DNA from: an uncultured Desulfobulbia bacterium
GTDB lineage: Bacteria > Desulfobacterota > Desulfobulbia > Desulfobulbales > CG2-30-60-27
Direction: 5' to 3'
Assembly (NCBI GenBank): GCA_964443295.1
Contig: CAYUCH010000002.1
Span: forward strand, 13,374-77,373
DNA length: 64,000 bases
The position numbers and the translations under genes are program-made. The notes beneath the pieces were generated by a model. The model was not told the DNA's origin. It ran no database searches and saw only the letters and a program-made list of their open reading frames with translations. Shown here piece by piece: positions 17,117 to 56,807 of this stretch (its first letter is position 1; every line of letters starts with the position of its first letter).

Positions 17117-17869
17117 ATGCGAAAACTTACTAACATATTGTTTTTTTTGGTATTTCTAGCTGTTTGCATCCACCTTCCTGCTCTGGCCAAAAATCATCAA
17201 ACGGATTCTAAACTCACCAGCCAGACTCAAAAATACAGTTACAGTTATGGAATCGAAGTTGCTTCTCGAATGAAAAACCTCAAAACTGACTTTGACCTTG
17301 AAAGCCTTTACCAAGGGATTAATGACTTCTATACCGGCACAGATTTAGTTATTTCAATCGAAGAAGCAGTTAAAATCAGGAATGAATTCAACCGAAAACG
17401 AAATGAGGAAATGAGGAAGAACCTCGAGGAGCTTTCCAAAAGAAACCTCATTGAAAGTATGAAATTTCTGAGAGACAACAAAAAGGAAAAGGGAGTAATA
17501 GAGACCGAAACTGGACTACAGTACTTGGTTTTGAAAAAAGGAAACGGCCCACGGCCAAATCTTTCCGACAATGTCCAACTTCACTATATTGGCACCTTGC
17601 TCAATGGCACCGAATTCGACAACTCTAAAGCAAGGGGAAAGCCTCTACTTTTTCCGATGAAAGGAAGGAAAAATATTATTGAAGGCTGGACTGAAGGGGT
17701 TCAAAAAATGCGAGTTGGTAGCAAATACAAATTCTTCATACCTCCCAGTTTAGCCTATGGTGGCAGACAGGCTGGGCCGATAATTACACCAAACTCACTC
17801 CTCATTTTTGAAGTTGAGATGCTTGCCATTGAAGAAAAAAAACGCAAAAAAGAAGTATTAACTCATTGA
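17117..17869 (+). CDS. Exported FKBP-type peptidyl-prolyl cis-trans isomerase (FkpA/Mip-like)
   Basis: Has a signal peptide (ILFFLVFLAVCIHLPALA), an N-terminal helical domain and an FKBP core (GLQYLVLKKGNGPRP...VQLHYIGTLLNGTEFDNS...GWTEGVQKMRVGSKYKFFIPPSLAYG). An AGGAA Shine-Dalgarno sequence lies upstream. Confidence 0.88.
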   Translation: MRKLTNILFFLVFLAVCIHLPALAKNHQTDSKLTSQTQKYSYSYGIEVASRMKNLKTDFDLESLYQGINDFYTGTDLVISIEEAVKIRNEFNRKRNEEMRKNLEELSKRNLIESMKFLRDNKKEKGVIETETGLQYLVLKKGNGPRPNLSDNVQLHYIGTLLNGTEFDNSKARGKPLLFPMKGRKNIIEGWTEGVQKMRVGSKYKFFIPPSLAYGGRQAGPIITPNSLLIFEVEMLAIEEKKRKKEVLTH

Positions 17870-18147
17870 GTTCCTTCTTTTTGAATCAACCATTGAATTA
17901 TTTTACGCCTTTGATTCATAAAAGCGTTATTACCTTCTGTGAGTTCCAGAAAAGCCCGATAATTCCTTGTTGCGCCTTCAATTCGCCCTAGTATTTCAAA
18001 AGAATATCCCTTGTTGAGATAAATCTCCGGCATACCAGGTCCATGCCGCTGGGCTTCATAAAGTAATTGCAAGGCGAGATGATGTTTCTCCTGTTGCTGG
18101 GCCACAATTGCACGTTGAACCCATATATGGCCTTGTCGCCTCTGCAA
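17863..18147 (-). CDS. MshN-like protein, 3' portion (TPR repeats) in a different frame; probably the continuation of 18056..19069
   Basis: This 94-aa ORF has only a TTG start and overlaps the upstream ORF by 92 nt. It contains TPR-like sequence (HHLALQLLYEAQRHGPGMPEIYLNKGYSFEILGRIEGATRNYRAFLELT). Confidence 0.5.
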   Translation of the reverse strand: MQRRQGHIWVQRAIVAQQQEKHHLALQLLYEAQRHGPGMPEIYLNKGYSFEILGRIEGATRNYRAFLELTEGNNAFMNQRRKIIQWLIQKEGTQ

Positions 18148-19069
18148 GCTGATTCAAACCCAAGTGTGCCGTTCCCAACCAAAACCAGGTTTCCCAGTCT
18201 TCTGGATTGAACTCGACTAAAGACGCAACTTGAACAATGGCTTCTTCAAAGTCTCCTCGGGCAATCATTTTTTTAACATACAAAAAAGGATCCGGAGGAT
18301 CCTGTTCTACAGGAGCAGCCATTGACTGAGCTGCAGGAGGTGAAGTTGCAGAAGACTGCTCAATCAACGGTGGATCTTCCACATGGTTTGAGCCCTGGTC
18401 CAGAGTAGATGGCTCCATCGCCTCATTTGCAACAACTAACACTGCAGACTCAGCATATACTGGTTGCTGAATATCGCCCGGAGCCTCATCTTCCTGAACA
18501 CCGGTTTTTTCTTCAATTGGAGAACCTGACGAAGAGACATCTATTGACAGATGGTCTTTTTGATATTCAGTACCTGTGGATATATGCTCATTTTCCGAAA
18601 CCACAACTGGCATAGTCTGTGTGGTGTTAACAGTAGTAATAAATTCCTGTGCTCCCTCTTTATCACCAGCAACCAGCGTGTCCGAGGTGCTTTTAACGAC
18701 AGGCTCCCCTTGGACCACGGCTTCATTTATGACCTGCTCCCCGGCCACATGATCCATACCACCTGTACTCCCACTCTCCTCAAGGGGCCTCGGCTCAGGT
18801 TGTGGTTGAGCTATGAACACAGGCGAATCTTGTTGAAAACCCTGCAAATACATGAAAAGTCCGCCACTCAAAACCACTAATACAAACAATCCGGCAGCAA
18901 GAAACAGCCATGTTCTTTTCCAAGATCTTTTCTGTGAATAATCTTCAAAGGAAGGAATTATTCCGGAATCGGGCATCCCATTATCGCCACTGACACTACT
19001 TGTGGTGCCATTTTCATCTTCTTTCTTTTTTTCCTGCAGGCGATTCAGCGCCTCTTCCACAATACTCAT
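18056..19069 (-). CDS. MshN-like protein, 5' portion: N-terminal TM, acidic low-complexity linker and first TPR. The reading frame breaks near 18125-18147.
   Basis: 337 aa. A TM helix (WLFLAAGLFVLVVLSGGLFMYL) is followed by GDFEEAIVQVASLVEFNPEDWETWFWLGTAHLGLNQLAEA and then a non-TPR tail. It lies downstream of the ExeA/MshM-like gene. Confidence 0.6.
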   Translation of the reverse strand: MSIVEEALNRLQEKKKEDENGTTSSVSGDNGMPDSGIIPSFEDYSQKRSWKRTWLFLAAGLFVLVVLSGGLFMYLQGFQQDSPVFIAQPQPEPRPLEESGSTGGMDHVAGEQVINEAVVQGEPVVKSTSDTLVAGDKEGAQEFITTVNTTQTMPVVVSENEHISTGTEYQKDHLSIDVSSSGSPIEEKTGVQEDEAPGDIQQPVYAESAVLVVANEAMEPSTLDQGSNHVEDPPLIEQSSATSPPAAQSMAAPVEQDPPDPFLYVKKMIARGDFEEAIVQVASLVEFNPEDWETWFWLGTAHLGLNQLAEATRPYMGSTCNCGPATGETSSRLAITL

Positions 19070-19089
19070 ATCTTCACTTCCCAGCTGAT

Positions 19090-19911
19090 CTATTTGAACT
19101 CCCTGGCGGCCCGCATCACAATTCGCGATCCAATGCGCCTTTGCCCAGAGGCAAAGGCAGCCAACACAGCACGATCACATATTTGATTAATCCTTCTTGG
19201 CACTCCTTTACTTAATCGGTGCAGAACAAATAAAGCGCGAGAGTTAAAAAACAGGGGCTCCCTTTTGCTTGGTTTCCTCGCAGTTTGCAAGCGGTGCCGC
19301 ACGTAACTCCGGGTTTCTCGAAAGTTGAATGGCTTCAGGTGATAACGAACACTGATTCTTTGTGCCAGTGGACGCATTTCCTTTGTGGCCAGGGTTCGAT
19401 CAAGCTCTGGCTGACCAACCAGGAGAAGGTACATGAGCTTTTCCTTCTCTGTGTCTAAATTTGAAAGAAGACGCAAACCCTCCAGTAACTCAGGTGTCAG
19501 GCGATGAGCTTCATCAACTAATACTGCTGCTTTTTTGCCCTCTTCCCCCATTTTCAGAAGCGCATCATAAATAGCCCGGTGCATTTGCCCGTCAGACATC
19601 CCGTCCAAGGCCTCGCCGGTAAGATCGTAATGAATAGAGTTAAGAAGGTCGGTAAGGCTTTGCTGGGGATTAAAAATATAGGCCGTCTTGATACCTACGG
19701 GCGCACCGCGAAGAAGTTGCCGACACAAGAGAGTTTTGCCCAATCCCACCTCACCGGTCAAGAGGGTAAAGCCACCACTTGCCAAGGCAAACTGCAAATG
19801 CTTCAAGGCTTTCAGGTGATGGCTGCCGGGAAAGAAAAAATCCGTATCCGGGGTCAAACTAAAAGGCGGTTCGGCAAATCCCAATTCATCGTAGCAGGAA
19901 TTTAAATCCAT
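19090..19911 (-). CDS. ExeA/GspA/MshM-like AAA+ ATPase (pilus cluster 1)
   Basis: Reads PFSLTPDTDFFFPGSHHLKALKHLQFAL...LLTGEVGLGKTLLCRQLL and VLVDEAHRL, with Walker A and B motifs. The length (273 aa) is typical of MshM. Confidence 0.85.
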   Translation of the reverse strand: MDLNSCYDELGFAEPPFSLTPDTDFFFPGSHHLKALKHLQFALASGGFTLLTGEVGLGKTLLCRQLLRGAPVGIKTAYIFNPQQSLTDLLNSIHYDLTGEALDGMSDGQMHRAIYDALLKMGEEGKKAAVLVDEAHRLTPELLEGLRLLSNLDTEKEKLMYLLLVGQPELDRTLATKEMRPLAQRISVRYHLKPFNFRETRSYVRHRLQTARKPSKREPLFFNSRALFVLHRLSKGVPRRINQICDRAVLAAFASGQRRIGSRIVMRAAREFK

Positions 19912-19995
19912 ACATTGCCTGAAGAAATTAAATTTTTTGGTTTAGAGCAGTAGACAGAAGGCGGTCTTCGGTCAACAAGGACTAGCATGCTCTGG

Positions 19996-21525
19996 TTAAT
20001 CTTCGATAATTCGGGGTGCGAGGAAGACAACGAGCTCTCTTTTTACTTTAGAATTGTAAGTACCCTTAAATAATGTACCTACCAAAAACAAATCACCTAA
20101 AAACGGCACCTTTCTTTCGGTATCAGACAACTCATCCTGAATCAAACCACCAAGTACTGCCATTTCCCCATTCCGACAGCGGATTAATGTGGAAGATTGT
20201 TTCACATCAAGCACCGGCGCTGTTGATCCCAATGGTGATTCAACCTTATCAACCAGACGAGTAATAATGGGAACAACGTTGAGAATAACCCAATCATCTT
20301 CCGATATCTGAGGTGTGATGGAAAGGACCACTCCCACGGTTACTGTATTACGTGTTTCCGTAACAGTTCGATCTCCAGTGTCTTCATCTTCCTCTGACTC
20401 AAGGATAAAAAACGATTGCTCAGTACCTACCTTTATCATGGCTGGCTGATTATTGAGAGTCCTGATCCGGGGCTGAGAAACAACTTTAACTTGGCCTTGC
20501 TCTTTCAGGGCATTTAAGACTGCATCCAAATCGTCACCACTGTATGCAATATTCAGAGTGGCCGTTTTGGCACTTGTGCCACCCACAGGATTAGATACGG
20601 AGGCAGAAGCGGATAAAATTGCATTGCCCAAATCAACTCGGGACCAATCAATCCCAAGGCTCGAGTCATCGGTCAAAGTCACCTCAACAATTTTCACTTC
20701 GATTTCAACTTGCCGGTGTAACGCTGCTCCCACCGCATTTATGTACGACTCGATGGTAACAATATTCCTGTGCCTGTCGGTAATTTGAATAGTGCCTGAC
20801 AGTTTATTAATAACCAACAAACCCTCGTCTGACATGAGTGATTCCAGTTGGTCACCAAATTCTTCCCAAAAAGAAATCTCGTCCTCTTCGCCCAAATGAA
20901 TGGAACCAGCAGATTCACCACTGCTGCTTGATGTGCCGGATGAAACCGTTGCCTGACTCGATCCTTTACCAGAACGCTTAAGACGAATGTAGTCTATTGA
21001 AAATGTCCTGGTCTCCATTAAATGAACCCGAATGAGTCCTTCATCTTCTTCCCAGTAGCAGCCATGGATATCAAGAATCGCCTCCATGGCATTTTTTAAC
21101 GGTAGATCACGAAAATTCACATTCACGGCACCTACAACGTCGGGATCCACTATAATGTTAAGCTGATACGTTTTGGCAAACAAAGCCAAGGCATCGGGCA
21201 GGGTCATATTATCAGCCCGAAACCTATATAGAGGGCCGACATCCTTTTCATCGGGCAGAGGAGGTTCGTCCTGCTCCAATGCCAGAGAAAGTCGATCGGT
21301 TAAATCAAGTGTATATGCAAGAGTTTTTTCTTTATCAACTGAATCAGTGGCACGACCAGCCTGGTTTTTTTTGCATGTATGTGGAAACTTCTTCTTTGCA
21401 GTGACTTTTTGCCCCGGCGTTTCTGGCGAAACAGTTGGTTCGGTAACTGTCATACAGCCGGACAATAGCCCCACCAAAAAAAGACACAAACACAGATTGG
21501 TTATGATGCGCTTATTGTTTTTCAC
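19996..21525 (-). CDS. Lipoprotein secretin (MshL/PilQ-like), pilus cluster 1
   Basis: Has a lipobox (LVGLLSGC), an N0-like block (MTLPDALALFAKTYQLNIIVDPDVVGAVNVNFRDLPLKNAMEAIL) and a secretin C-domain ending in VPFLGDLFLVGTLFKG. Confidence 0.9.
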   Translation of the reverse strand: MKNNKRIITNLCLCLFLVGLLSGCMTVTEPTVSPETPGQKVTAKKKFPHTCKKNQAGRATDSVDKEKTLAYTLDLTDRLSLALEQDEPPLPDEKDVGPLYRFRADNMTLPDALALFAKTYQLNIIVDPDVVGAVNVNFRDLPLKNAMEAILDIHGCYWEEDEGLIRVHLMETRTFSIDYIRLKRSGKGSSQATVSSGTSSSSGESAGSIHLGEEDEISFWEEFGDQLESLMSDEGLLVINKLSGTIQITDRHRNIVTIESYINAVGAALHRQVEIEVKIVEVTLTDDSSLGIDWSRVDLGNAILSASASVSNPVGGTSAKTATLNIAYSGDDLDAVLNALKEQGQVKVVSQPRIRTLNNQPAMIKVGTEQSFFILESEEDEDTGDRTVTETRNTVTVGVVLSITPQISEDDWVILNVVPIITRLVDKVESPLGSTAPVLDVKQSSTLIRCRNGEMAVLGGLIQDELSDTERKVPFLGDLFLVGTLFKGTYNSKVKRELVVFLAPRIIED

Positions 21526-21542
21526 CGCCTTTTACTTCCCCC

Positions 21543-21998
21543 TTATTTAACATCTTGAAAAACAAGCACTTCTTCACCCTTAGGCCCCATCAGCCTGACA
21601 GCATCAACTCCAATTGCGATTACTGTATACTCTTCAAGAGGATCTCCCTCGCCCACTATACTATAGCCGTCAATCGAGGCAAACCGTCTTTCACCATCAA
21701 CCACAATTGCCTGCAATGCAAAGCGTTCCTGCAAGGCCCCGGTTCCTTTTCTATCAAGCCCTTTTATAACTGAGCCCGTTCTGGTACGAGTTTTCTTGGG
21801 AGACAAAAAAGCACTGGTCCGAATAGGCAAAGATGGTTTATCTTCCCGAAGTTCTATTTCAAGAATTCTATCCGGCAAGGGAAGAGTATTAACAGCAGGC
21901 AAACGATGAGCAGGTATCATGCTGGTCCCGAATTTTATTACAACCCAAAAGACCAGGCAAGCACCTGCAATTGTTGTATATGGCAAATAAGCTTTCAT
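21543..21998 (-). CDS. MshK/PilP-like inner-membrane pilus assembly protein (cluster 1)
   Basis: An N-terminal TM helix is followed by a C-terminal beta domain (LQAIVVDGERRFASIDGYSIVGEGDPLEEYTVIAIGVDAVRLMG). The start overlaps the upstream stop (ATGA). Confidence 0.6.
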   Translation of the reverse strand: MKAYLPYTTIAGACLVFWVVIKFGTSMIPAHRLPAVNTLPLPDRILEIELREDKPSLPIRTSAFLSPKKTRTRTGSVIKGLDRKGTGALQERFALQAIVVDGERRFASIDGYSIVGEGDPLEEYTVIAIGVDAVRLMGPKGEEVLVFQDVK

Positions 21999-22429
21999 AT
22001 ATTCCAGAAAATCACCATCTTCTCACCTTTAAAAGACAGGTGAAGCTCCGATGGATGGTCTGCTGTTTTCCCAGGTTTATCTTCCAATTCAAATGATTCA
22101 AGGTAAAAAAAGCCATCACTTTCATAAGTGGAGACTAAAATTTCGCGTAACATGCCAATCTGATCTTCTGAAAAACCAGCCTCAAGATCAACGGGTTCTC
22201 TCTGTAAAGAAGCATCAGCCTTCAGGTCTATTTTCTTGAGCGCTTCTTCATACACCACTATATCTGTACGCAATCGCTGTAATTCTTGTTCAAGATTTAC
22301 AACCTTTTGCAGATCATTGTTCATACGGTTTAGTCTGGCTGTTCCATACCAGAACAGTAACAGTGAACAAAACAGCACAATTGCTGCCATAGATTGAAGC
22401 TGCCATGTCTTTCTTTCAAAAATCGACAT
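21995..22429 (-). CDS. MshJ/PilO-like bitopic pilus assembly protein (cluster 1)
   Basis: A TM helix (AAIVLFCSLLLFWY) is followed by a coiled coil (NNDLQKVVNLEQELQRLRTDIVVYEEAL). It lies between the platform and MshK-like genes. Confidence 0.55.
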   Translation of the reverse strand: MSIFERKTWQLQSMAAIVLFCSLLLFWYGTARLNRMNNDLQKVVNLEQELQRLRTDIVVYEEALKKIDLKADASLQREPVDLEAGFSEDQIGMLREILVSTYESDGFFYLESFELEDKPGKTADHPSELHLSFKGEKMVIFWNI

Positions 22430-22470
22430 AAATACTCTCGGTGATCAGAAATCTTCTCTCAATAACTCCA

Positions 22471-23679
22471 CTATAAATTCAGGTTCCCCAACATTCCGTA
22501 CAGTGGGCCCATGAGCGCGATAATAAAAAATATAAATATGGCACCAGCCACGCCCAAAATGAGCGGCTCCAAAGTTTTGCCAATAATGTCCACCAAGGCT
22601 TTTACCCTGGCAAAATAAATGGTGGCCAACTTGTCCATCTGATCTTCCAGATTACCGGTTTGTTCGCCAATCCCAACCATGCGACAGGCCATCAGTTCAA
22701 TGACCTCGGTCTCTTTAAAACTATCATACAGAGATGTTCCACCTCGAATACTCTCTGTAATATCCTGTACTTTTGACATAAGGAAAGTATTTGACAATGC
22801 TCCTGCCGTGGTTTTCAAGGCATTGGCGATAAGGACACCGGCCCTGATCATCAACGAAAGATACTGAAAATAAAAGGCGGTCTGGGATCCCCTGATAATG
22901 GTTCCGGCAATGGGCATATGCCATAAAATCCGATCGGTAATGAGCCTGAATTTTTTAAATCCCCTCCCCACGGTCAAACCAATGGGAATACTGACACCAA
23001 TCAGAATTATTGCCAGCCAATTGGCTGTTAAAAAATTACTTATAGAAATCAACAATTTCGTTGCAGGAGGAAGCGCCACCCCCATACCCTGAAATAATTC
23101 TATAAGTTGCGGTAGAACAAAAGCAATCCAAAACACCATGGCACCGATGATGGCAAACAAGGTGAAACATGGATAGATCATGGCCCTTTTTGTGGCAGAT
23201 TTGATCTCCTCAATTCGCTCAATATGTATACCTGCGTCACTCATCATACGGTCTAATGTTCCACTTTCTTCACCAATTTGGGCCATATGGATGACTATTT
23301 CCGGGAAAATTCCAGTCTGTTTTAAAGCCACAGAAAAATGCTGCCCCTCATTGAGCTGACTCTGAATAAGCTGCAAGGCCTTTTTAAAAGCAGGTACTTT
23401 TGTGGTATCAGCCATATCGGTCAATGCGGCATGAATAGAAATACCGCCCCCCAGATACAGGGCCATATTATTGCAGAATTCGGCAATCTCAAGGGGCTTA
23501 ACCTTTGCCGAAGTGTGTTTAGCCATCCACCCAAAAATATCGGGCAGGGTGATGACATGGCTCAGCCATTCCTGGCGAGTTGCCAGAAAGCGGTCAAGGG
23601 ATTCCAGGCTGTCGAACTGACCGCTCCCCTTCTTAAGCTCACCTGTGTGTGAAACCGCCTGAAAGATGTAAAATGGCAT
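22471..23679 (-). CDS. Type IV filament platform protein (GspF/PilC/MshG family), cluster 1
   Basis: 402 aa. The N-terminus reads MPFYIFQAVSHTGELKKG, followed by two T2SSF repeats with three TM segments. Confidence 0.9.
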   Translation of the reverse strand: MPFYIFQAVSHTGELKKGSGQFDSLESLDRFLATRQEWLSHVITLPDIFGWMAKHTSAKVKPLEIAEFCNNMALYLGGGISIHAALTDMADTTKVPAFKKALQLIQSQLNEGQHFSVALKQTGIFPEIVIHMAQIGEESGTLDRMMSDAGIHIERIEEIKSATKRAMIYPCFTLFAIIGAMVFWIAFVLPQLIELFQGMGVALPPATKLLISISNFLTANWLAIILIGVSIPIGLTVGRGFKKFRLITDRILWHMPIAGTIIRGSQTAFYFQYLSLMIRAGVLIANALKTTAGALSNTFLMSKVQDITESIRGGTSLYDSFKETEVIELMACRMVGIGEQTGNLEDQMDKLATIYFARVKALVDIIGKTLEPLILGVAGAIFIFFIIALMGPLYGMLGNLNL

Positions 23680-23764
23680 ATTCTAACCAGCGCCCCGAAA
23701 ACTCAATCCAAAACAAAGCTTAATTATTACTCAATCTGCCAATATCCGCATGGTGGATTCTTTA

Positions 23765-25390
23765 TTATTTTACAACCCGCATAAACTCGGCAATATCCGT
23801 CCTGCCACCTTCAATAAGAGCCAATGCTGATTGACGCAGGTTGGTCATTCCCTTTTCCATGCCCATATTAGCAATCTCATGAGGAGATCCACCTTCGGCT
23901 ATGAGGACCTTTATTTCATCATCAACCTCTAAGACCTCCCCCACAACCATCCGACCTATATACCCAGTTCCCCGACAGCGTTCACAGCCGACCCTTGAGA
24001 ATTGTTTCTCCCCCTGTAAATCAAAAAATTTCTTGTCCTCGAGAGTCAAATCGACCTCTTCTTTACAGAATGGGCATAATTTTCTGATTAAGCGTTGGGC
24101 AATAACCCCGGAAAGAGTAGATGATAGCATAAAATCTCCCAACCCTAAATCCCGCAATCTTGCCACCGCGCCTGGTGCATCATTAGTATGCAGGGTGGAA
24201 AAGACAAGATGGCCGGTTAGTGCTGCACGGCTTGCCAAAATAGCCGTTTCCTCATCGCGGATCTCACCGATAAGAATAACATCGGGGTCCTGCCGCAGAA
24301 AACTCTTAATTGCCGAAGCAAACGTCACACCTGCCTTGACATTGACCGCCACTTGATGAACCAGGGACATTTGATATTCTATGGGATCCTCGATGGTCAT
24401 TACATTTTTTTCCATGGAATTGACCTTACGAAGAACACTATATAGTGTGGTTGATTTACCTGAGCCTGTGGGTCCCGTGGCCAAAATCATGCCATAGGGC
24501 GCACTTGTCAATCTGGTGACCTGGTCCACCTGATCCTGACTGAAACCCAAGTCTTCCACGGGTATCATACCGCTCCCACCGACCAACACACGAATTACCA
24601 AGTTTTCTCCGTGGGGTGTCGGAATGGTGGAAACACGCAGGTCATAGTTTTCCCCAAGAAACTCAAACGACGTTCGACCATCCTGAGGACGATTCTGGTC
24701 TGCAATATCCATGTCGGAAATAACTTTGAATGAGGCAACCAAACGAGAATGGCATACCTGGGGCAAGGTATAAGTAAGTTGCAAAACACCATCGATACGA
24801 TACGAAACCAAGGTAGCAAAACTAGTTGGGCTGATATGTATATCAGAAGACCCGTTTTCAATCGCTGTTGAAAGGAGAAGCTCGGAAAGTTGTTCAGCGG
24901 AAAAATTTCGATCAGCTTGGGCATCCATGCCGATCTGCTCGACTTCCGCCTGAATGGGATGGTCAGCAAGGTAATAAAGCTGTTCTATTTTCCGGCGCAG
25001 CTCCCCTTCCGGTGCAACTGAAAGAGATAGAGGGAATCGAGAAAACCGCTCCATATTGGAAAGCATCCTGGAATCAAAAGGATCCCCAACTGCCACCACA
25101 AGCTCTCCTTCCACAAAGTCAAATGGAAGGATATTTGACTTCTGGGCAAAATTGAAGGGGATCTGGCCCAAGATTTTTTTATCAGGGGTTGCTCCTTTTA
25201 AATCAGTAAAGGGGAAGCCTGCCTGGTTTGCCAAGACACTAGCGACCTCACTATCAGTCACAAAACCAATGCGCAGAAGAGTTTCACCCAACCGTTCACC
25301 GGTGGTTTTCTGCACCTTCAAGGCATAGACAATCATTTCCTCAGTAATGATGCCGGCTTCTTTTAAAAGCGTTCCTATAGGTTTTCCCAT
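23765..25390 (-). CDS. Type IV pilus assembly ATPase (GspE/PilB/MshE family) with a tandem MshEN-type N-terminal motif, cluster 1
   Basis: Has Walker A (GPTGSGKSTTLY) and a tetracysteine motif (CPFCKEE...CERCRGTGYIGR). The N-terminus reads PIGTLLKEAGIITEEMIVYALKVQ-KTTGE-RLGETLLRIGFVTDSEVASVLANQ. Confidence 0.92.
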   Translation of the reverse strand: MGKPIGTLLKEAGIITEEMIVYALKVQKTTGERLGETLLRIGFVTDSEVASVLANQAGFPFTDLKGATPDKKILGQIPFNFAQKSNILPFDFVEGELVVAVGDPFDSRMLSNMERFSRFPLSLSVAPEGELRRKIEQLYYLADHPIQAEVEQIGMDAQADRNFSAEQLSELLLSTAIENGSSDIHISPTSFATLVSYRIDGVLQLTYTLPQVCHSRLVASFKVISDMDIADQNRPQDGRTSFEFLGENYDLRVSTIPTPHGENLVIRVLVGGSGMIPVEDLGFSQDQVDQVTRLTSAPYGMILATGPTGSGKSTTLYSVLRKVNSMEKNVMTIEDPIEYQMSLVHQVAVNVKAGVTFASAIKSFLRQDPDVILIGEIRDEETAILASRAALTGHLVFSTLHTNDAPGAVARLRDLGLGDFMLSSTLSGVIAQRLIRKLCPFCKEEVDLTLEDKKFFDLQGEKQFSRVGCERCRGTGYIGRMVVGEVLEVDDEIKVLIAEGGSPHEIANMGMEKGMTNLRQSALALIEGGRTDIAEFMRVVK

Positions 25391-25409
25391 ACTCGACTAC
25401 CGCACCAAT

Positions 25410-27062: not shown

Positions 27063-27198
27063 AAATTTAAAGTGCAGTTATTACTGAATTTACCTGACGT
27101 TAAAAACCAATTTGAAACTTAACTGTGTCAATAAAACATACTTTCACATAAAGCACACGCTTTTTTAGGGAAATACAGGGAGTTAGCATTATAAATAA

Positions 27199-27239: not shown

Positions 27240-27258
27240 ATTGTTGACCAAAAACTAT

Positions 27259-32513: not shown

Positions 32514-32517
32514 TTTC

Positions 32518-47659: not shown

Positions 47660-47775
47660 TGATAGAATCAGGTAGCACGATTGCTAAATCTAACTCTATA
47701 ATTTATGAGTAATTACAGGTGTAGTACCCCAAGGGCATTCGAAGTCTTTGCTTATCTACTACGCAACACCTGTGA

Positions 47776-48990: not shown

Positions 48991-49003
48991 GGTCCTTCCG
49001 ACC

Positions 49004-49966: not shown

Positions 49967-50577
49967 TGGGGAAGTAAAAAAATCCGTTCAATTTCACCCC
50001 AGCCGGAGATTTCAAGTTCAACTTTTATTGCCCCAGGCAACTTGCCAAGCAAGAATGTTTTTTCTCTGCTCTCCTCAAGAGGCCAAGTCTCCTGCCATTC
50101 ACCAGAATCATTATAAAACTGAATAGTAAATGACTCTACTTTGTTCAAAATTGGCGCAGAGTAAGGCTCATTTTCTGAAGCTCTGTCCAACACGCGCCAA
50201 CTGAGACGTAGCAGCTGCTCATCTTCCAATCGATATGCCACCCGCTGCAAATTACTTCGAATAAATCCTGCCGGATTGCTCCACCCACCTCGGGTGAACT
50301 CCACAGCTCCTTCCATGGAGCCGGCCGTATGTCGTTGCATGGCAGGTTGCACTTCTTCATAGGCGTCGCGAATATTTCGCTGTGCCATAGTTTGCATAAA
50401 ATCTCGCTCCATAATGGTCAATGCCATTTGCAATTCAGCCAAGCGGTCCATCTCGTCTGTTACTTGTTCCCGAATATCAACCATGGAACCGAGGCTGCTA
50501 TATGCCACTGCTGACAACATGGCAAAAATTGCAATGGCCACCAAAAGTTCCAGGAGGGTAAAACCGTGTTCTCTCAT
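49963..50577 (-). CDS. gspJ: Type II secretion minor pseudopilin GspJ
   Basis: Reads MREHG|FTLLELLVAIAIFAMLSAVAYSSL; 204 aa. Confidence 0.85.
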   Translation of the reverse strand: MREHGFTLLELLVAIAIFAMLSAVAYSSLGSMVDIREQVTDEMDRLAELQMALTIMERDFMQTMAQRNIRDAYEEVQPAMQRHTAGSMEGAVEFTRGGWSNPAGFIRSNLQRVAYRLEDEQLLRLSWRVLDRASENEPYSAPILNKVESFTIQFYNDSGEWQETWPLEESREKTFLLGKLPGAIKVELEISGWGEIERIFLLPH

Positions 50578-50578
50578 G

Positions 50579-50767
50579 CTAACAACTCACAGGGTGACGA
50601 CTACAATCCGGATAACTCAAAGCCCTGTAAGTGTTCACAAGTGGTGCAGATGTGTGCAAACAGGGCGGACAATAATAGCCTTCTTCTATATTGTACGCCC
50701 TGTTTGCGCGCAAGTAAGCGAGCCTGCGAGACTCTGGATACGCCGCCTGTGAGCGCTTACATTTCAT
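50579..50767 (-). CDS. Orphan 62-aa basic CPPC-containing ORF that exactly fills the gspI-gspJ gap; alternatively a structured RNA or inverted-repeat element
   Basis: The ATG overlaps the gspI TGA (ATGA), and the TAG is followed after 1 nt by the gspJ ATG. The protein reads MKCKRSQAAYPESRRLAYLRANRAYNIEEGYYCPPCLHTSAPLVNTYRALSYPDCSRHPVSC. The same DNA carries nested inverted repeats. Confidence 0.4.
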   Translation of the reverse strand: MKCKRSQAAYPESRRLAYLRANRAYNIEEGYYCPPCLHTSAPLVNTYRALSYPDCSRHPVSC

Positions 50768-51147
50768 GAGCCCGAGGGACGCCCAAGAAAAATAGTTAAG
50801 GATGAGAGAGGCTCCTCGTCATCAGTTTCTTTCCGTACCTCTATGATCCCCCGACGAATATCCTCGTCCGGTGTTTCATACCCAGTTACCTTCCACTGCC
50901 ATTTTCGACCGGCCATTTCAGACTCTCCATCTGCCGTGGAGGTCGGTATCCATTTCTTGGCCAATTGAATTTCCGCAGCCTTATTCATTGCGACCCAGGT
51001 GGCCAATGTTCGCTCTTTAAGATAACCGGCATTATCCACCGCCCTGCCACTGGAAGCGGCCATGGATAGACAAACAAGACTGAGCATGGCTAATGCGACG
51101 AGGATTTCCAGAAGCGTAAAACCTCTATATCCATTGGCAGAAAACAT
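50764..51147 (-). CDS. gspI: Type II secretion minor pseudopilin GspI
   Basis: Reads MFSANGYRG|FTLLEILVALAMLSLVCLSM...ERTLATWVAMNKAAE; 127 aa. Confidence 0.85.
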   Translation of the reverse strand: MFSANGYRGFTLLEILVALAMLSLVCLSMAASSGRAVDNAGYLKERTLATWVAMNKAAEIQLAKKWIPTSTADGESEMAGRKWQWKVTGYETPDEDIRRGIIEVRKETDDEEPLSSLTIFLGRPSGS

Positions 51148-51149
51148 AT

Positions 51150-52364
51150 TTAACGAACCAACTGATTGAGATCAAAAATCGGTAGCAGAATGGCCAATAC
51201 AATAAGCATGACCATGCCACCCATGACCAAAATTAATAATGGTTCAAAAATTCCCATGAGGGCAGAAATCATGGTTTCCAGTTCTCGTTCCTGTCCCACT
51301 GCCGCCCTCTCAAGCATTGACTCAAGATTAGCACTGGCCTCGCCACTGGCAATAAGATGAATGGTAATGGGCGGGAAATAACCTGACTTGGCCAGCATTT
51401 GATGAACGGCTCCGCCCTCCCGAACCCGGGCCGCAGCTTCCTCAACTGCCTGCCGCATGGCAATATTGCTGATAACTTTTGCCGCTACATGCATACCCTC
51501 CAGAACAGGCACGCCGCTGGCCGTAAGAATACTGAATGTTCGGGCAAACCGAGCCGCATTACCTGCTCGCACAAACCGCGATACCAAGGGAATCCGAAAA
51601 AGAAGACGATGGTATTGCATCTTAATCCTTGGCCGGCTCAATAAAAACCGAACCACAATTACCAAACCTGCGAGACCAACCAAGAGAACAAGACCATATT
51701 CCTGTAGAAAGGAACTGATCCAGATCAATCCTCGGGTCAAGACGGGTAATTCCTGGCCTAGGTTTTCGAACACATCCACGACTTTTGGAACCACAAAGGT
51801 GACCAAAGCCACTACAACAGATATCGCCACAACGGTCAAAATCACGGGATACAGGAGAGCCAACATGACTTTTTGACGAATCAATTGACTAAATTCCGTA
51901 TAGTCGGCCAAGCGCTCCAAGACAACGTCCAGGTAGCCAGCCTGCTCACCCGCCGCCACAGTGGTGCGGTATAATTCCGGGAAAACTCCAGGGAAATCAT
52001 CCATGGCATGGGCCAATGAATGACCTTCCACAACCCGGGATCGCACACCTGCCAGAATACTTTTCAAGCGTGCTTTCTCGGCCTGCTCGGCTACCGTTGC
52101 CAAGGCCTCGTCAAGTACTGTGCCAGATCTTACCAGGGTGGCAAGCTGTCGGGTAATAAGGGCTAAATCAGCCGGGGCAAGTCCCCTTTGAGTAAGAAGA
52201 AACGAACTACTTCGACTTTCACCTTTGGCAACTTCTTCTACGGAGAGGGGAATGAGATCTCGGTCACGGAGGATCTGCCTGATCTGCCTTGGAGTATCTC
52301 CTTCGAGTACCCCTTTTTTCTGGCGACCGGCGGTATCGAGAGCTGCGTATTCAAAGGCGCCCAT
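51150..52364 (-). CDS. gspF: Type II secretion platform protein GspF
   Basis: Reads MGAFEYAALDTAGRQKKGVLEGDTPRQIRQILRDRDLIPLSVEE, with two T2SSF repeats; 404 aa. Confidence 0.93.
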   Translation of the reverse strand: MGAFEYAALDTAGRQKKGVLEGDTPRQIRQILRDRDLIPLSVEEVAKGESRSSSFLLTQRGLAPADLALITRQLATLVRSGTVLDEALATVAEQAEKARLKSILAGVRSRVVEGHSLAHAMDDFPGVFPELYRTTVAAGEQAGYLDVVLERLADYTEFSQLIRQKVMLALLYPVILTVVAISVVVALVTFVVPKVVDVFENLGQELPVLTRGLIWISSFLQEYGLVLLVGLAGLVIVVRFLLSRPRIKMQYHRLLFRIPLVSRFVRAGNAARFARTFSILTASGVPVLEGMHVAAKVISNIAMRQAVEEAAARVREGGAVHQMLAKSGYFPPITIHLIASGEASANLESMLERAAVGQERELETMISALMGIFEPLLILVMGGMVMLIVLAILLPIFDLNQLVR

Positions 52365-52370
52365 AAATAA

Positions 52371-53864
52371 TTATGCCTCCTTGGCATCTTCCTTGGACAC
52401 TCGTAGTACTTCTTCCATGGAAGTTTCACCGGCAAGGACACGGCGCACACCGTCTTGGCGAATATTGGGGGTGCGCTTACGGGCTTGTATTTCCATTTCA
52501 TGTTCTCCTGCACCGTCATGGATCATGGAACGCATAGCATCATCAACTTCAACCAATTCATAAATACCGCTCCGGCCGCCATAGCCCAGGCCAAGACATT
52601 CATCACAACCATTGGGCGTATAGAGCTGAGGTGCGTCAGATACAGGCAGACCAAGTGAAATACATTCCGCTTCTGAAGCAGAATGGGCCTGGCGGCAGTG
52701 TGGACAAAGTAATCGTACCAAGCGTTGAGCCAGAATACCGATGACCGATGATGAGAGCAAAAACGGTTCAACGCCCATATCTCGCAAACGAGTTATGGAG
52801 CCAACTGCCGTGTTGGTGTGTAAAGTCGAAAGAACCAGGTGACCGGTAAGACTCGCCTGCACAGCAATCTCAGCTGTTTCCAGATCGCGTATCTCACCGA
52901 TCATTACCACATCGGGATCCTGCCGTAGAATTGCTCTCAGACCACGGGCAAAACTCATATCCACCTTAGTGACCACTTGGGTCTGGCTGATTCCATCCAG
53001 ATAATACTCGATGGGATCTTCCACGGTCATGATATTGCGGCTGGATTGATTAAGCAGAGTGAGGGAAGCATATAGAGTGGTTGTTTTTCCTGATCCGGTC
53101 GGACCCGTTACCAGCAGAATCCCATTGGGCCGACTCAAGAGGCTTTTCATGCCATCTAAGGATTCAGGCGCCATACCCAATTGCTCAAGATCAAGTCGGC
53201 CAGCCTGCTTGTCAAGGAGCCTCAACACCACCCGCTCACCATGTCCACAGGGCATGGTTGAAACACGGACATCCACTGGCCGCCCGGCAATACGCAAAGA
53301 AATACGACCATCTTGCGGCAACCGCTTTTCTGCAATATCAAGTTTGGCCATTACCTTGATACGAGACACTATAAGTGAGGCCAACACTCTGGCTGGCTGC
53401 AATACCTCTCGCAGCACGCCATCCACTCGGAATCGAACCCGCAATCGATTTTCGTATGGTTCAATATGAATATCCGAGGCCTCGATCTTGACTGCTTCGG
53501 TAAGCAGGCCGTTGATCAACCTGATAATAGGGGCATCATCTTCACTTTCCAAGAGATCCTGGGGTTCGGAAAGCTGCTGGGCAATAGAATTAAGGTCCAT
53601 CTCTTCGCCCAAGTCACCGGCTATCTGCATGGCCTCACTAGAGCCGCTTTCGTAAATTCGTTGCAAGAGTCCTTCAAATTCTTCTCGGGAGACAGTTTTC
53701 AACTGTAAAGGCCTTCCCAGAAATCGCCGAACCTCAGCGAGTGGTAGAGCAGGAACCCGTTCTTGACACACGACGGTGGCGGATTGATCCTCCAATTCGG
53801 TGACCACCATACCGTGGCGCCGGGCAAAAGAGAATGGCAGATGTCTTTCAAAATCAGAGGTCAT
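52371..53864 (-). CDS. gspE: Type II secretion ATPase GspE
   Basis: Has a GspE N1-like N-terminus (LPFSFARRHGMVV), Walker A (GPTGSGKTTTLY) and CPHCRQ...CDECLGLGYGGR. No MshEN-type tandem motif is present. Confidence 0.93.
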   Translation of the reverse strand: MTSDFERHLPFSFARRHGMVVTELEDQSATVVCQERVPALPLAEVRRFLGRPLQLKTVSREEFEGLLQRIYESGSSEAMQIAGDLGEEMDLNSIAQQLSEPQDLLESEDDAPIIRLINGLLTEAVKIEASDIHIEPYENRLRVRFRVDGVLREVLQPARVLASLIVSRIKVMAKLDIAEKRLPQDGRISLRIAGRPVDVRVSTMPCGHGERVVLRLLDKQAGRLDLEQLGMAPESLDGMKSLLSRPNGILLVTGPTGSGKTTTLYASLTLLNQSSRNIMTVEDPIEYYLDGISQTQVVTKVDMSFARGLRAILRQDPDVVMIGEIRDLETAEIAVQASLTGHLVLSTLHTNTAVGSITRLRDMGVEPFLLSSSVIGILAQRLVRLLCPHCRQAHSASEAECISLGLPVSDAPQLYTPNGCDECLGLGYGGRSGIYELVEVDDAMRSMIHDGAGEHEMEIQARKRTPNIRQDGVRRVLAGETSMEEVLRVSKEDAKEA

Positions 53865-53878
53865 AGTGATCCTGTGCG

Positions 53879-55807
53879 CTAGTCATTAGGCCATTCAGGC
53901 AATACATCTGGAGACTCATCGGGCAAGAGATAGATACCGTCCTCGGCAAATTCTTTTTGGAGACCTCTCATGTAATCGTACTTATCAAAGGTTATGCGGG
54001 AACTGTCTGCCTCACTACGAATTATATGGGGCCGCAAAAAGACCATGAGATTTCGCTTTTTATGACTTGAGGTGTTATACCGAAACAACACACCGAGGAA
54101 AGGGATGTCTCCCAGGAAGGGCACTTTCTGGACCGATTCCCTGACATCATCCCGAATAAGCCCTCCAAGAACAAGAATTTTGCCATCCTCAACCATGACA
54201 CTGGTTTTAATCTTTCTATTATTGGTAATAAGGTCCACCCCGGACTCAGCTTGAGAAAGACTAGAGGTCTCCTGCTCAATATCAAGGCGTATGGTATCCC
54301 CTTCATTAATCTGAGGTTTGACCTTGAGAAGTAGCCCAACAGATTTTCGTTCTATGGTCTGAAAGGGATTGCCGGGTGTTGATGACGAAGAACCTGTGGA
54401 GGTGTAACTTCCGGTAACAAAAGGTACTTCCTGACCAACAGAAAACTCAGCTTCTTCATTGTCCATGGTAACCAAGGTCGGAGTTGATAGGATATTGGTA
54501 TCACCTTCACCTGCAGCAACCCGCACCAAGGCACCTAAATTAAGTATTTCAGTACCTAAAATTTCAGTAGTGCCATCAAACCATCCATAAGTAAATCCAT
54601 TCCCGACAAGACCAGGATTGAGACTCAATGCGTTGATACCATTTGCCCCAAAATTAGTTCCACCAAAATTGCCATGATCATCTCCTGAACCATCGACAAA
54701 TCGCCACTGAATACCGAGTTCAGCACTCTTATTCACCTCAATCTCAGCAATAACCGCCTCAATAACCACCTGTTCCCGCCTGATGTCTAATTTTCGGATT
54801 ACCGCCCGGAGAGATTTGATCACCTGGGGTGAAGCAGAAATGATGAGAGCATTGGTTGCCTCATCAGCCTGGATTGAGATTTCACTGTTCTTTTTACTGC
54901 GAACCGTCTTTTTGGGAGTCTTTGCAGAAGAAGTTTTTTGAATCTCCTTGCCAACCCCTGTGAGGATAGAGACCAGATCCTTGGCCTTGGCGTAGCGCAG
55001 AAAAACTACCTGGGTTGAGCCTTCTGTTGTAACCGGGGTGTCGAGATGGGCCACCAGAGCCTTAACCCTCAGGATATCGCCCTCGTCGCCAGATATCAGA
55101 ATACTGTTGGTCCGTTCATCAGCCACAACCTGTAATCTCTGAGCTGCGGCACCTTTTTTAGGAGCAGTCTTTACAAGGCCCTGGACCACAGCAGCTACAT
55201 CCCGGGCATCGGCATATTCCAGCCGCACGACCTGGATCTCGCCGGTGCCGGCTCTGTCGATTCGTTGAATAATTTTAATTAATCTCTCAATATTCGCGGC
55301 CCGGTCTGAAATGATGATCATATTACTTTCTTCATGGGCGGCGAGATAGCTTTTAGGGGCAATGAGTGGTCGTAGTATTGGAACCAAACGGTTGGCAGGT
55401 ACATGTTTAAGCTTATACAATCTGGTGATTGAGCGATCATTCGGCCTTGTGGGCGCCTCTTCCTCAACATAGGCGTTGGTCATGTCCTGCTTGGCCCTGA
55501 CTTGAGGAATAATTTTCACCACATTACCGGATTCTATTGCGGCATAATCGTGGACCTGGAGAACAGAAAGAAATACACCATAAATTTCGTCTTCATTCAT
55601 ACCTTCAGATGAAATGAGGGTCACCTTTCCTTTGACGGCGGGATCCACCAGAAAAGTCTTACCTGTCAGCTTGGAGACACTTTTTATGACGCTTTGGATC
55701 TCCACATCCTGAAAGTTAAAAGTAACTACCCCCTCACCTGCCAACGCTTGACTGACAAGCAGCAGACAAAGAATAGGAATCAATAATAGGGTACGTTGCA
55801 TGTTCAT
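53879..55807 (-). CDS. gspD: Type II secretion secretin GspD
   Basis: I prefer the Met at 55807 (MNMQRTLLLIPILCLLLVSQALA signal peptide) over the track start at 55909, which overlaps gspC. The protein has an N0 block (VTFNFQDVEIQSVIKSVSKLTGKTFLVDP) and a secretin domain (VPFLGDIPFLGVLFR). Confidence 0.92.
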   Translation of the reverse strand: MNMQRTLLLIPILCLLLVSQALAGEGVVTFNFQDVEIQSVIKSVSKLTGKTFLVDPAVKGKVTLISSEGMNEDEIYGVFLSVLQVHDYAAIESGNVVKIIPQVRAKQDMTNAYVEEEAPTRPNDRSITRLYKLKHVPANRLVPILRPLIAPKSYLAAHEESNMIIISDRAANIERLIKIIQRIDRAGTGEIQVVRLEYADARDVAAVVQGLVKTAPKKGAAAQRLQVVADERTNSILISGDEGDILRVKALVAHLDTPVTTEGSTQVVFLRYAKAKDLVSILTGVGKEIQKTSSAKTPKKTVRSKKNSEISIQADEATNALIISASPQVIKSLRAVIRKLDIRREQVVIEAVIAEIEVNKSAELGIQWRFVDGSGDDHGNFGGTNFGANGINALSLNPGLVGNGFTYGWFDGTTEILGTEILNLGALVRVAAGEGDTNILSTPTLVTMDNEEAEFSVGQEVPFVTGSYTSTGSSSSTPGNPFQTIERKSVGLLLKVKPQINEGDTIRLDIEQETSSLSQAESGVDLITNNRKIKTSVMVEDGKILVLGGLIRDDVRESVQKVPFLGDIPFLGVLFRYNTSSHKKRNLMVFLRPHIIRSEADSSRITFDKYDYMRGLQKEFAEDGIYLLPDESPDVLPEWPND

Positions 55808-55871
55808 GGGTCTCGATCCGGTTGGGCTCCGATAAAACAAAGAGAGCCTATGGTTAATGGTATCATTGCCA

Positions 55872-56807
55872 TTATTGTATCTTATAACTCCTGGTCTGTT
55901 TGGGGCCACCGCCTTTTCCGACTACCAGGCTGATGCGTGGAGCATTTTTTATTCGTTTATAGGCGGTCAGGCCTTGGGAGGCATTGGTCATTTTTATTCC
56001 ATTGACTTCATAAATTACATCGCCAGAGTTCAAACCAAGGTCAGACAGCAACTTGCCGCCTGAGCTACTATTGAGCTTGTAGCCCACCTGTTTGCCACCT
56101 TGTTTATAGACCTCAACCCCAACCTCTTTGGCCAGGGCGGGAATATCAGAGATTTTTTCCTTCCAATAGGATTTATCAATCTGCCAGTTTTTACCGTCGC
56201 CAGAACTAGTAATCCCTCCGCTACTCCGACGAGAAGCGCGTCTTCTACTGCTTCTTTTGCCTTTGGAGGATTTCTTTTCTGTTTTTTCCGTCATCAACAG
56301 CGTTTCATATTTGCCGGACCTGGATAGGATAACTCTGTCCGGATAAATGCCCCGTACTTCAGCATTTCCCGGTACCTTATCGCCGATTCCATATACTTTA
56401 TCCTCGGCCTTTTTTCCCTTTTCTCTGATGATGGCCAATGCTTTGGCATCGGGTTTAAAGGCAATAACCCCCTTCAACTCAAGCTGCAGCGTAGTTTTAG
56501 GTGCGCTGGTGGAATCATCAATTTTAGTTGCCGGTGCTTTCTCAACCTGTTTTTCAGCCTTTCCGAAGAGTAAAAGACCTGGAGGTGAACTTCCCTTTGG
56601 CTTGGATATGGCCCTTTTGCCGGGAACTTTCTTGCCTGTGGCTGTTTGGTGTGCAAGGCTCACATCCCCACTATCCAACACAGGCCCGCACAGCTGCCAA
56701 GTCAACACAGCAGCTGCGTGGGAGATCAAAGTAAGAAGCACTATGATGGTTAGCAGCCGAGCTTTTTCTATATATTGACTCTGGGCCTCAAACAATTTCA
56801 CAAACAA
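55872..56807 (-). CDS. gspC: Type II secretion protein GspC (TM, HR region and C-terminal PDZ)
   Basis: Has a TM helix (LLTIIVLLTLISHAAAVLTW) and a PDZ-like C-terminus (GGKLLSDLGLNSGDVIYEVNGIKMTNASQGLTAYKRI). It lies immediately upstream of gspD. Confidence 0.8.
   Translation of the reverse strand: MFVKLFEAQSQYIEKARLLTIIVLLTLISHAAAVLTWQLCGPVLDSGDVSLAHQTATGKKVPGKRAISKPKGSSPPGLLLFGKAEKQVEKAPATKIDDSTSAPKTTLQLELKGVIAFKPDAKALAIIREKGKKAEDKVYGIGDKVPGNAEVRGIYPDRVILSRSGKYETLLMTEKTEKKSSKGKRSSRRRASRRSSGGITSSGDGKNWQIDKSYWKEKISDIPALAKEVGVEVYKQGGKQVGYKLNSSSGGKLLSDLGLNSGDVIYEVNGIKMTNASQGLTAYKRIKNAPRISLVVGKGGGPKQTRSYKIQ

Follow-up and report, generated by a model that had tools for sequence, protein, structure and literature searches.

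Three probably independent type IV filament systems side by side on a contig of an uncultured Desulfobulbia bacterium

A 64-kb stretch of contig CAYUCH010000002.1 (assembly GCA_964443295.1, positions 13,374 to 77,373 of the forward strand), from an uncultured Desulfobulbia bacterium, holds three type IV filament machines within a single 39-kb block. In this stretch, which was analysed at its full length of 64,000 nucleotides and is called the window below, the machines are the pilus-like systems A (17863-29648) and B (30000-43622) and system C (45291-56807), a type II secretion system (T2SS). We consider it likely that the block consists of three independent machines that were brought together in one lineage, and not of a duplicated pair of pilus clusters with a T2SS beside it. 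As part of the same reading, system A is probably a member of a small, uncharacterised lineage resembling the mannose-sensitive haemagglutinin (MSH or MSHA) pilus, a rarer variant, and system B is probably a hybrid of type IVa pilus (T4aP) and MSH-like features, of a type common in Desulfobacterota. If this is right, the block itself would be of limited importance, namely an accident of gene order in one lineage. The part worth keeping would be system A, a compact and recurrent pilus-like machine with two pilins and an alignment protein that family models miss, and its presence would place MSH-like filament systems that depend on ExeA among Desulfobacterota-like anaerobes. For annotation, the analysis flags a PilM/N-fusion family that has no Pfam match, a LysM plus SPOR-like module that can sit on ExeA or on the secretin, and a corrected operon boundary between systems A and B.

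The gene map was built from the listing of open reading frames (ORFs) with their translations and from Pfam and NCBIfam scans. An initial annotation, made from the sequence alone, had described two divergent MSHA-like pilus clusters, cluster 1 (27858 down to 17863) and cluster 2 (28284-45241), followed by a complete T2SS. Its inventory proved right almost gene for gene: all the genes it listed are present, in position as well as in strand, the Pfam and NCBIfam scans agree on three type IV filament machines in the 39-kb block, and the T2SS, which converges with cluster 2, is represented from GspC to GspN. What had to be revised were the relationship of the two pilus clusters to each other and the border between them.

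Relationships among the three systems

In their core components, each pilus cluster is roughly as similar to the T2SS as to the other cluster. The ATPase cores share 41.5% identity between clusters 1 and 2, 42.7% between cluster 1 and the T2SS, and 41.9% between cluster 2 and the T2SS. The corresponding values for the platform proteins are 24%, 23% and 30%, and the secretin cores are 32-34% identical among the three systems. At the DNA level, similarity between the clusters is confined to ~100 bp of the Walker region, in agreement with the earlier statements that the paralogues lack DNA-level repeats, are deeply diverged and do not stem from a recent tandem duplication. The description of the clusters as an MSHA-like pair did not hold up, as their secretins fall under different curated models. 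The secretin of system A (19996-21525, minus strand; Pfam Secretin, 137 bits) scores best on the NCBIfam MshL model, with 235.3 bits against a cut-off of 250.2 (TIGR02519), followed by PilQ (170.8 bits) and GspD (153 bits). The secretin of system B (33855-35492, plus strand), which the initial annotation had lettered L like that of cluster 1, is of the PilQ type, passing TIGR02515 with 321.8 bits against a cut-off of 284.35 and reaching just 92 bits on the MshL model. Both are lipoproteins, as had been proposed, since a sequence scan and inspection by eye found lipoprotein-type signal ends on the two of them (lipobox LLSGC in system A). The initial annotation had named an old duplication or an independent acquisition as possible origins; of these, independent acquisition fits better and duplication is disfavoured.

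Relatives of each pilus system occur alone in other genomes. Cluster-1-type loci comprise 15 metagenomic loci plus three further loci (L009, L015 and L017). Their ATPases are always closest to that of cluster 1 (44-84% identity, compared with 35% between clusters 1 and 2), and the gene order fusion-E-G-(J-K)-secretin-ExeA-(TPR), where TPR denotes a tetratricopeptide repeat protein, is kept in the loci that show several genes, L017 excepted. Where such loci have long flanks (L021, L032), neither cluster 2 nor a T2SS lies nearby. A scan of a genome collection with the system A ATPase returned only matches of 36-45% identity, from Endomicrobia and Synergistaceae, and no close relative. As for system B, three orthologous loci (L011-L013) share the order PilMN, O-like, B-like, secretin, E, G, pilins, large protein, ExeA, and are neighboured by unrelated housekeeping genes; a fourth (L014) has I-J-K-L-M-E-G, followed by a sigma-54 activator and a pilin. 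The intact ATPases of L011-L013 show 74-79% identity and those of L011-L014 range from 53% to 79%, the one of L011 being fragmented. In none of these four loci is system A or a T2SS found nearby. The initial annotation had named two outcomes that would refute it, a recent tandem duplicate with decaying genes or an architecture common in the clade, and these apply by half: the cluster 2 architecture is common in Desulfobacterota, with more than 1500 ExeA-LysM-type homologues and the gene order conserved in L011-L014, and the one seemingly decaying gene of the block, that of the system A TPR protein, is broken in this assembly only.

The AT-rich spacer at 27859-28283 (no strand; 32% GC, compared with 45.5% for the window) had been described as the divergent region that separates the two clusters, with the two genes to its right (28284-29648) assigned to cluster 2. 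The spacer is indeed AT-rich. However, the second of these genes encodes a large, Cys-rich pilin of 383 aa that travels with cluster-1-type loci, which places the divergent control region within system A, with the main operon to one side and the large pilin to the other; both genes are part of the cluster-1 system. A pair of prepilin genes and no more, one mid-size and one large and Cys-rich, is present in each of the eight cluster-1-type loci that were compared for pilins (the window, L009, L015, L017, L020, L021, L024 and L032); the mid-size pilin is almost free of Cys and the large one has 6-14 Cys. A homologue of the large pilin (49%) is placed divergently beside cluster 1 in L009, another (36-39%) lies beside the cluster-1-type locus of L017, and in more distant loci the large pilin gene follows that of the platform protein within the operon. 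The system B orthologous loci L011-L013 lack it. It is the 880-bp gap at 29649-30530 that truly separates systems A and B.

The three systems do not stay adjacent in relatives, not even in a sister metagenome-assembled genome (MAG), GCA_054043525.1. There, the T2SS is syntenic to the end of gspH, after which a PIN/PhD toxin-antitoxin pair and a PEP-CTERM protein occupy the junction (L018, 14690-16848) at which the window has system B. Likewise, cluster 1 of the sister MAG is followed by an N6-methylase fragment and a YhcG-like gene (L009, 11442-12958), not by the genes for the TPR protein and the FKBP isomerase. The borders of the systems are therefore zones of rearrangement, and the three-way adjacency is a trait of the window's lineage alone. 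GC content varies little across the block (0.41-0.51), and no transposase, integrase or other mobile-element gene was found in the window, as the initial annotation had noted.

Several observations weigh against this reading. Systems A and B were placed relative to MSH, T4aP and T2SS by curated-model scores and pairwise distances, not by a tree. The ATPases and platform proteins of both pilus clusters fail every NCBIfam equivalog cut-off and score about equally on the GspE and PilB models, so that a secretion role, with a pseudopilus, has some probability, above all for system A. As regards the two-pilin plan, homology in the C-terminal part of the large pilin is detectable only among the window, L009 and L017, and the second pilin of the more distant loci is a positional and compositional analogue. 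The J-like assignments discussed below are without statistical support, and we infer, rather than observe, c-di-GMP (cyclic di-GMP) binding, peptidoglycan binding and piliation itself.

Should system A be an atypical secretion system with a T2SS-like pseudopilus (cf. Hxc), the large pilin would be its tip or its cargo-contact subunit. In line with this, the system A ATPase (23765-25390, minus strand; T2SSE 389 bits plus MshEN-type N-terminal domain) scores slightly higher on GspE than on PilB (471 versus 465.3 bits; the TIGR02538 cut-off for PilB is 675.65), and the platform protein (22471-23679, minus strand; T2SSF 160 bits), although below every NCBIfam equivalog cut-off, has its best score on GspF. 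Besides, both system A pilins match only the N-terminal regions of GspG and GspH in NCBIfam, there are only two pilin genes, and a PilT is lacking. Yet signatures of GspC, GspL and GspM are absent from system A, its secretin is MshL-like rather than GspD-like (235 versus 153 bits), and the closest relatives of the ATPase in the PDB are the pilus extension motors PilF and PilB, with GspE next and PilT far behind. A complete canonical T2SS is, moreover, already present 17 kb away. Taken together, these points make a secretion system the best surviving alternative, but an unlikely one.

Even less probable, in our view, is the arrangement that the initial annotation implied, i.e. two paralogous MSHA-like clusters that arose by an old local duplication, diverged in function and share a divergent control region next to the T2SS. 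Both clusters do hold the same kinds of parts (pilin, PilM/N fusion, J- and K-like proteins, lipoprotein secretin, MshEN ATPase, platform protein and ExeA-like protein), their ExeA-like proteins are 33% identical, and both are single loci devoid of a prepilin peptidase, as is the rule for MSH loci (PMC6668835). Against a paralogous pair stand the mutual distances, which are no smaller than those to the T2SS, the different secretin models, the solitary occurrence of orthologues of either cluster in other genomes, and the position of the divergent region inside system A, given that the 383-aa pilin goes with cluster-1-type loci. That system A is a pseudogenising remnant, as the 38-bp deletion splitting its TPR gene and the lack of any TPR gene in the sister MAG locus L009 might suggest, is very improbable, because the gene is intact in two sibling assemblies that are otherwise identical over the aligned region, and all other system A genes are full-length and conserved. 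We thus retain three independent machines as the preferred reading.

System A and its relatives

MSH systems have been reported in Gamma- and Epsilonproteobacteria and in Chrysiogenetes, in a survey in which 884 'generic' systems stayed unclassified (Denise et al. 2019, PMC6668835); with that many unassigned systems, it is unsurprising to find variants such as those described here. Searches of the literature turned up no description of MSH-type systems in Desulfobulbaceae or other Desulfo- taxa and nothing on AP024086 (record AP024086.1, from a complete-genome relative with a cluster-A-type locus), the supplements of Denise et al. held nothing for Desulfo- genera, and a tblastn search of a plasmid collection with the system A secretin and ATPase yielded no MSHA records. 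Like MSH, systems A and B each form a contiguous single locus, and no prepilin peptidase was found in the window. Both also have candidates for the five kinds of gene that are mandatory in MSH, namely a pilin, an MshE-type ATPase bearing an MshEN domain, an MshG-type platform protein, a secretin and an ExeA-like MshM. System A additionally has a TPR protein in the position of MshN and a secretin that scores best on MshL. Unlike in MSH, neither secretin reaches the MshL cut-off (235.3 and 92 bits for A and B, compared with 250.2), that of system B being of the PilQ type, and instead of the many Msh pilins system A has two, one of them large and Cys-rich, and system B five pilin-like genes. The msh genes are ordered mshI-J-K-L-M-N-E-G. 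Both window systems depart from this order, to which the I-J-K-L-M-E-G of the system B relative L014 comes closer.

In the main operon, a gene at 25410-27062 (minus strand) encodes a protein of 550 aa that comprises a PilM/GspL-like actin-fold domain, a transmembrane (TM) helix and a PilN/O-like domain. Family searches failed to recognise this protein, even at E 5, and a word-indexed search returned 4 homologues. A profile search recovered 130 homologues (clusters at 50% identity) among 1.84 billion representative proteins; when 60 of them were compared with Pfam, five families were hit by one member each, and the sole relevant one was a weak PilN match (E 0.0074). An AlphaFold (AF2) model built on these homologues reached a mean confidence (pLDDT) of 86. 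In Foldseek, its N-terminus matched PilM (5eou, 2ych), the cytoplasmic domain of GspL (4pht, 1yf5) and FtsA; a long helix follows, and then a PilO-like C-terminus (3jc8). On the strength of these fold matches, the original assignment of the protein as a PilM/N fusion is right. Between the fusion families of systems A and B, hhalign aligned only the PilN-like C-terminal halves, and weakly so (E 0.0017).

Downstream of the ATPase and platform genes come two small bitopic proteins that had been called J- and K-like. The K-like protein (21543-21998, minus strand) has no Pfam match, but its C-terminal PilP/GspB-type beta-domain is shared with the K-like protein of system B, as indicated by an hhalign comparison with the T2SSB-domain family of the latter (E 2e-4 over 51 columns). 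That part of the assignment stood. The J-like coiled-coil protein in the PilO/GspM position (21995-22429, minus strand) was assigned from position and topology only, with hhalign comparisons to the J-like protein of system B and to GspM proteins giving nothing significant. The secretin gene is followed by one for an ExeA/MshM-like AAA+ ATPase of 273 aa (19090-19911, minus strand; AAA_22, 80 bits), which is devoid of a periplasmic domain.

The last gene of the operon encodes the TPR protein in the MshN/TadD position (17863-19069, minus strand). The MshN-like TPR gene that had been described is present, but in the window assembly it is frameshifted by the 38-bp deletion near 18128-18137, with a few mismatches at the junction and weak TPR Pfam matches on both fragments. 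The lesion would be an assembly error or a minor population variant, because the gene is intact (414 aa) in the sibling assemblies L001 and L002, which are otherwise identical over the aligned region. A TPR gene is kept after ExeA in L021, L030 and L032 as well.

As to the pilins, the mid-size one is encoded at 27259-27858 (minus strand; start codon probably at 27840), has an N_methyl match and the cleavage motif G/FTLVE (cut at the slash), and would be ~183 aa long when mature, with no Cys. Seven of the eight cluster-1-type loci have its gene immediately upstream of that for the PilM/N fusion; in L017 it is relocated. The large pilin (28497-29648, plus strand; N_methyl) has a prepilin N-terminus followed by a large, Cys-rich extra region, with ~356 aa and 13 Cys in the mature form; no domain family was detectable in the extra region. 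Modular type IV pilins, which carry an extra grafted domain, are known from Streptococcus sanguinis, and the 383-aa protein resembles them in its build, its large extra region being Cys-rich.

In the divergent spacer between the two pilin genes, which is 70% identical at the nucleotide level to its counterpart in L009, two sigma-70-like sites stand back to back at 28075-28123, with 11/12 matches. The number of such sites is not above chance here, and the same applies to the sigma-70 scans as a whole, in which strong individual sites are to be read as hints only. A search for the sigma-54 consensus likewise gave matches at no more than chance level. Rfam had no match in the whole window, or in the intergenic regions at a relaxed threshold, and hence no c-di-GMP riboswitch. 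Between the spacer and the large pilin, a plus-strand ORF of 57 aa with two TM segments (28284-28457) probably encodes a genuine small membrane protein, judging from its sequence conservation, because it is more conserved relative to L009 (81% amino-acid identity) than the adjacent pilin (49%).

How might system A work? Its inventory, in which the PilM/N fusion, J and K form an alignment complex beside a motor, platform, secretin and helpers, is that of an extension-only machine. The ATPase would drive the mid-size pilin to polymerise through the secretin, with c-di-GMP probably acting as the gate. As system A has only two pilins, we infer that the large one may take over from the usual four minor pilins, as a tip, priming or adhesin subunit present in low copy. 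The ExeA-like ATPase and the TPR protein, finally, may aid secretin assembly.

The suggestion of c-di-GMP control comes from the ATPase's N-terminal domain. MshEN domains consist of two tandem 24-residue motifs, RLGxx(L/V/I)(L/V/I)xxG(L/V/I)(L/V/I)xxxxLxxxLxxQ (PMC5013675). On the c-di-GMP motif model NF053729, the ATPases of systems A and B score 54 and 61 bits against a cut-off of 38, and both align with Vibrio cholerae MshE-N (5HTL; E 3e-14 and 8e-18, respectively). Of the key c-di-GMP-contacting positions of V. cholerae MshE, system A differs at Arg9 alone, where it has Pro, and gating of system A by c-di-GMP is therefore plausible on sequence grounds. In system B, the key residues are kept except Gly18 (replaced by Glu) and Arg38 (replaced by Phe).

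A more far-reaching interpretation, which we advance only tentatively and hold to be rather doubtful, is that system A represents a distinct and hitherto undescribed branch of the filament superfamily, related to MSH, with a two-pilin plan in which the large pilin replaces the initiation complex of four minor pilins, and with a PilM/N-fusion family of its own that is missed by Pfam and NCBIfam models alike. System A would then lend itself to testing how a filament can be primed when the conserved minor-pilin tip complex is missing.

System B as a hybrid pilus locus

System B opens with a PilM-PilN fusion of 660 aa (30531-32513, plus strand, as are all genes of this system). PilM_2 and TIGR01175 match it below cut-off, and PF11104 and PF05137 are present in its homologues. 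The fusion is followed by a PilO/GspM-like protein (32518-33057) with a weak PilO match (E 0.005), whose gene keeps its position in L011, L012 and L014, and by a GspB/PilP-like protein (33120-33704) that passes the T2SSB model with 35.9 bits against a cut-off of 28.4 and aligns with the HR region of GspC (hhalign E 0.0025). Next to the secretin gene lies that of the extension ATPase (35524-37221; T2SSE 429 bits plus MshEN-type domain), which scores 558.3 bits on the PilB model, below the TIGR02538 cut-off of 675.65; its PDB relatives are PilF and PilB first, then GspE, with PilT far. The platform protein (37246-38469; T2SSF 204 bits) completes this part of the locus.

Four pilin genes come after it, all with N_methyl matches and cleavage motifs: the candidate major pilin (38573-39052), a GspH-like minor pilin (39131-39826; N_methyl plus GspH) and two further minor pilins (39730-40251 and 40251-40766). 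Their order is kept in L011-L013. A protein of 431 aa, which the initial annotation had called lectin-like, then occupies the GspK/PilX position (40763-42058). It has no family matches; by eye, its N-terminus is prepilin-like (NQNG/SVLIA) and without Glu5, and orthologues with 42-51% identity are found in L011-L013.

The last component is an ExeA/GspA-like AAA+ protein (42018-43622; AAA_22, 74 bits) with a TM segment and periplasmic LysM-like and SPOR-like domains. The initial annotation had called it an ExeA-LysM-SPOR fusion. Of this, the LysM-like part stands, as it passes the Phage_tail_X model (25.5 versus a cut-off of 22 bits); the SPOR part is weakly supported, with a partial match at E 0.018 (15.8 versus a cut-off of 21 bits). 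In the AF2 model of the periplasmic part (pLDDT 84), a beta-alpha-alpha-beta unit is followed by an RNP-like unit, and the best fold matches, whose E-values are non-significant, include LysM proteins and the SPOR domain of DedD (probability 0.97, E 0.048). The homologues of similar length and coverage, more than 1500 in number, are annotated as GspA in Desulfobulbaceae and relatives, and the named homologues of cluster-2 proteins come from Desulforhopalus, Desulfobulbaceae and Thermodesulfobacteriota MAGs. These names, together with the 'delta' type of the best GspC model (see below), point to a placement in Desulfobacterota. In L014, the C-terminal LysM/SPOR-like region of the window's ExeA has a homologue (26% over 138 aa) in the secretin of 720 aa (7748-9910). 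The location of the putative wall-binding module would therefore differ between genomes, being ExeA in some and the secretin in others.

Of the known systems, T4aP shares with system B a secretin of the PilQ subfamily, an ATPase closest to PilB/PilF, PilM-, PilN- and PilO-like parts and, by comparison with FimU-PilVWX, one major pilin plus four minor-pilin-like genes, the last without Glu5. Unlike T4aP, system B has PilM and PilN fused, all its genes in one locus and GspB-like and ExeA-like proteins, has no PilT, PilU or PilD nearby, and falls short of the PilB cut-off with its ATPase (558 versus 676 bits). The GspB- and ExeA-like proteins invite another comparison. ExeAB/GspAB is the secretin-assembly complex of the Aeromonas and Vibrio T2SS. 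Similarly, in system B a GspB-like protein with a T2SSB domain, encoded beside the secretin, is paired with an AAA+ ExeA-like inner-membrane protein whose periplasmic part is putatively wall-binding. However, its wall module is LysM-like plus SPOR-like instead of the peptidoglycan-binding domain of ExeA, and the pair serves a pilus cluster rather than a T2SS; system A, for its part, has an ExeA-like protein lacking a periplasmic part. By analogy with ExeAB, the GspA-like and GspB-like proteins of system B may help its secretin to assemble through the cell wall, the LysM-like and SPOR-like domains probably binding peptidoglycan, as their sequences suggest.

Two flanking genes touch on the limits of system B. 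In the 880-bp gap upstream, a plus-strand ORF of 79 aa (30000-30239) is rich in Arg, Asp and Cys, with repeats of the DRR/ERR type. It is called as a gene in L001-L003 and has no family match; L012 has a homologue (46%, E 1e-8 to 1e-10) upstream of its orthologous cluster, oriented the other way. The ORF could encode a small regulator. At the other end, a lipoprotein of 481 aa (43796-45241, plus strand; lipobox LLSC) has weak Big_1/invasin-like repeats, with Big_1 and Invasin_D3 matches below cut-off. Its membership of system B is doubtful: it has a sigma-70-like site of its own (43759-43786) and L013 has no such gene after ExeA. Possible roles are those of an adhesin or of a T2SS substrate.

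The type II secretion system and the flanks of the block

System C is a complete, canonical T2SS (45291-56807, minus strand) in the order gspC-D-E-F-I-J-K-L-M-N-G-H. Read from its left end, it consists of gspH (45291-45809; 97.5 bits against an NCBIfam cut-off of 80), gspG (45893-46339; 185/89 bits), gspN (46329-47156) and gspM (47153-47659), both of which pass their Pfam models, gspL (47776-48990; 252/65), gspK (49004-49966; 286/130), gspJ (49963-50577; 190/65), gspI (50764-51147; 86/44), gspF (51150-52364; 496/424), gspE (52371-53864; 704/630), gspD (53879-55909; 599/351) and gspC (55872-56807). GspC passes Pfam T2SSC and is slightly below both NCBIfam cut-offs, its best model being the 'delta' type. 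Compared with the canonical T2SS, system C thus passes the curated models for D to L and the Pfam models for C, M and N; it differs in having gspG and gspH at the end of the operon, no gspO, and a structured insert of 185 nt between gspI and gspJ. The sister MAG has the same gene order (L018; 70-79% nucleotide identity). System C would secrete folded exoproteins.

For their prepilin peptidase, all three systems would rely on a gene elsewhere in the genome, where any retraction ATPase would be encoded as well. No PilT-type gene was found in the 64-kb window, nor a prepilin peptidase (PilD; a Peptidase_A24-type ORF) among its ORFs scanned with Pfam and NCBIfam, which agrees with the initial annotation on PilT/PilU and the peptidase alike.

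Compared with L018, whose gspI and gspJ share an overlap of 4 nt, the spacer of ~185 nt between these genes (50578-50764) is an insertion. This spacer contains a 24-nt inverted repeat (50651-50674 and 50689-50712), folds strongly as RNA (-71 kcal/mol, z -4.7) and is unique in the window. It could be an element resembling miniature inverted-repeat transposable elements (MITE-like) or a structured intra-operon RNA.

To the left, the block is flanked by a FKBP isomerase gene (17117-17869) and the dcw cell-division cluster (741-16655, minus strand). The latter apparently lacks ftsW; the ~300 bp between murD (7119-8615) and murG (5672-6820) hold no ORF of at least 100 aa. The right flank comprises a LOG-family gene, a TPR protein, selA and aat. 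This TPR protein, of 720 aa (57704-59866), adjoins the T2SS, next to which it is conserved in L018, and has a marginal GGDEF_2-like match (25.1 versus 24.5 bits); from this match, a link to c-di-GMP signalling is possible. Proteins identical to those of the window occur on the metagenome contigs JGI 3300009008 and ENA ERZ23498639.

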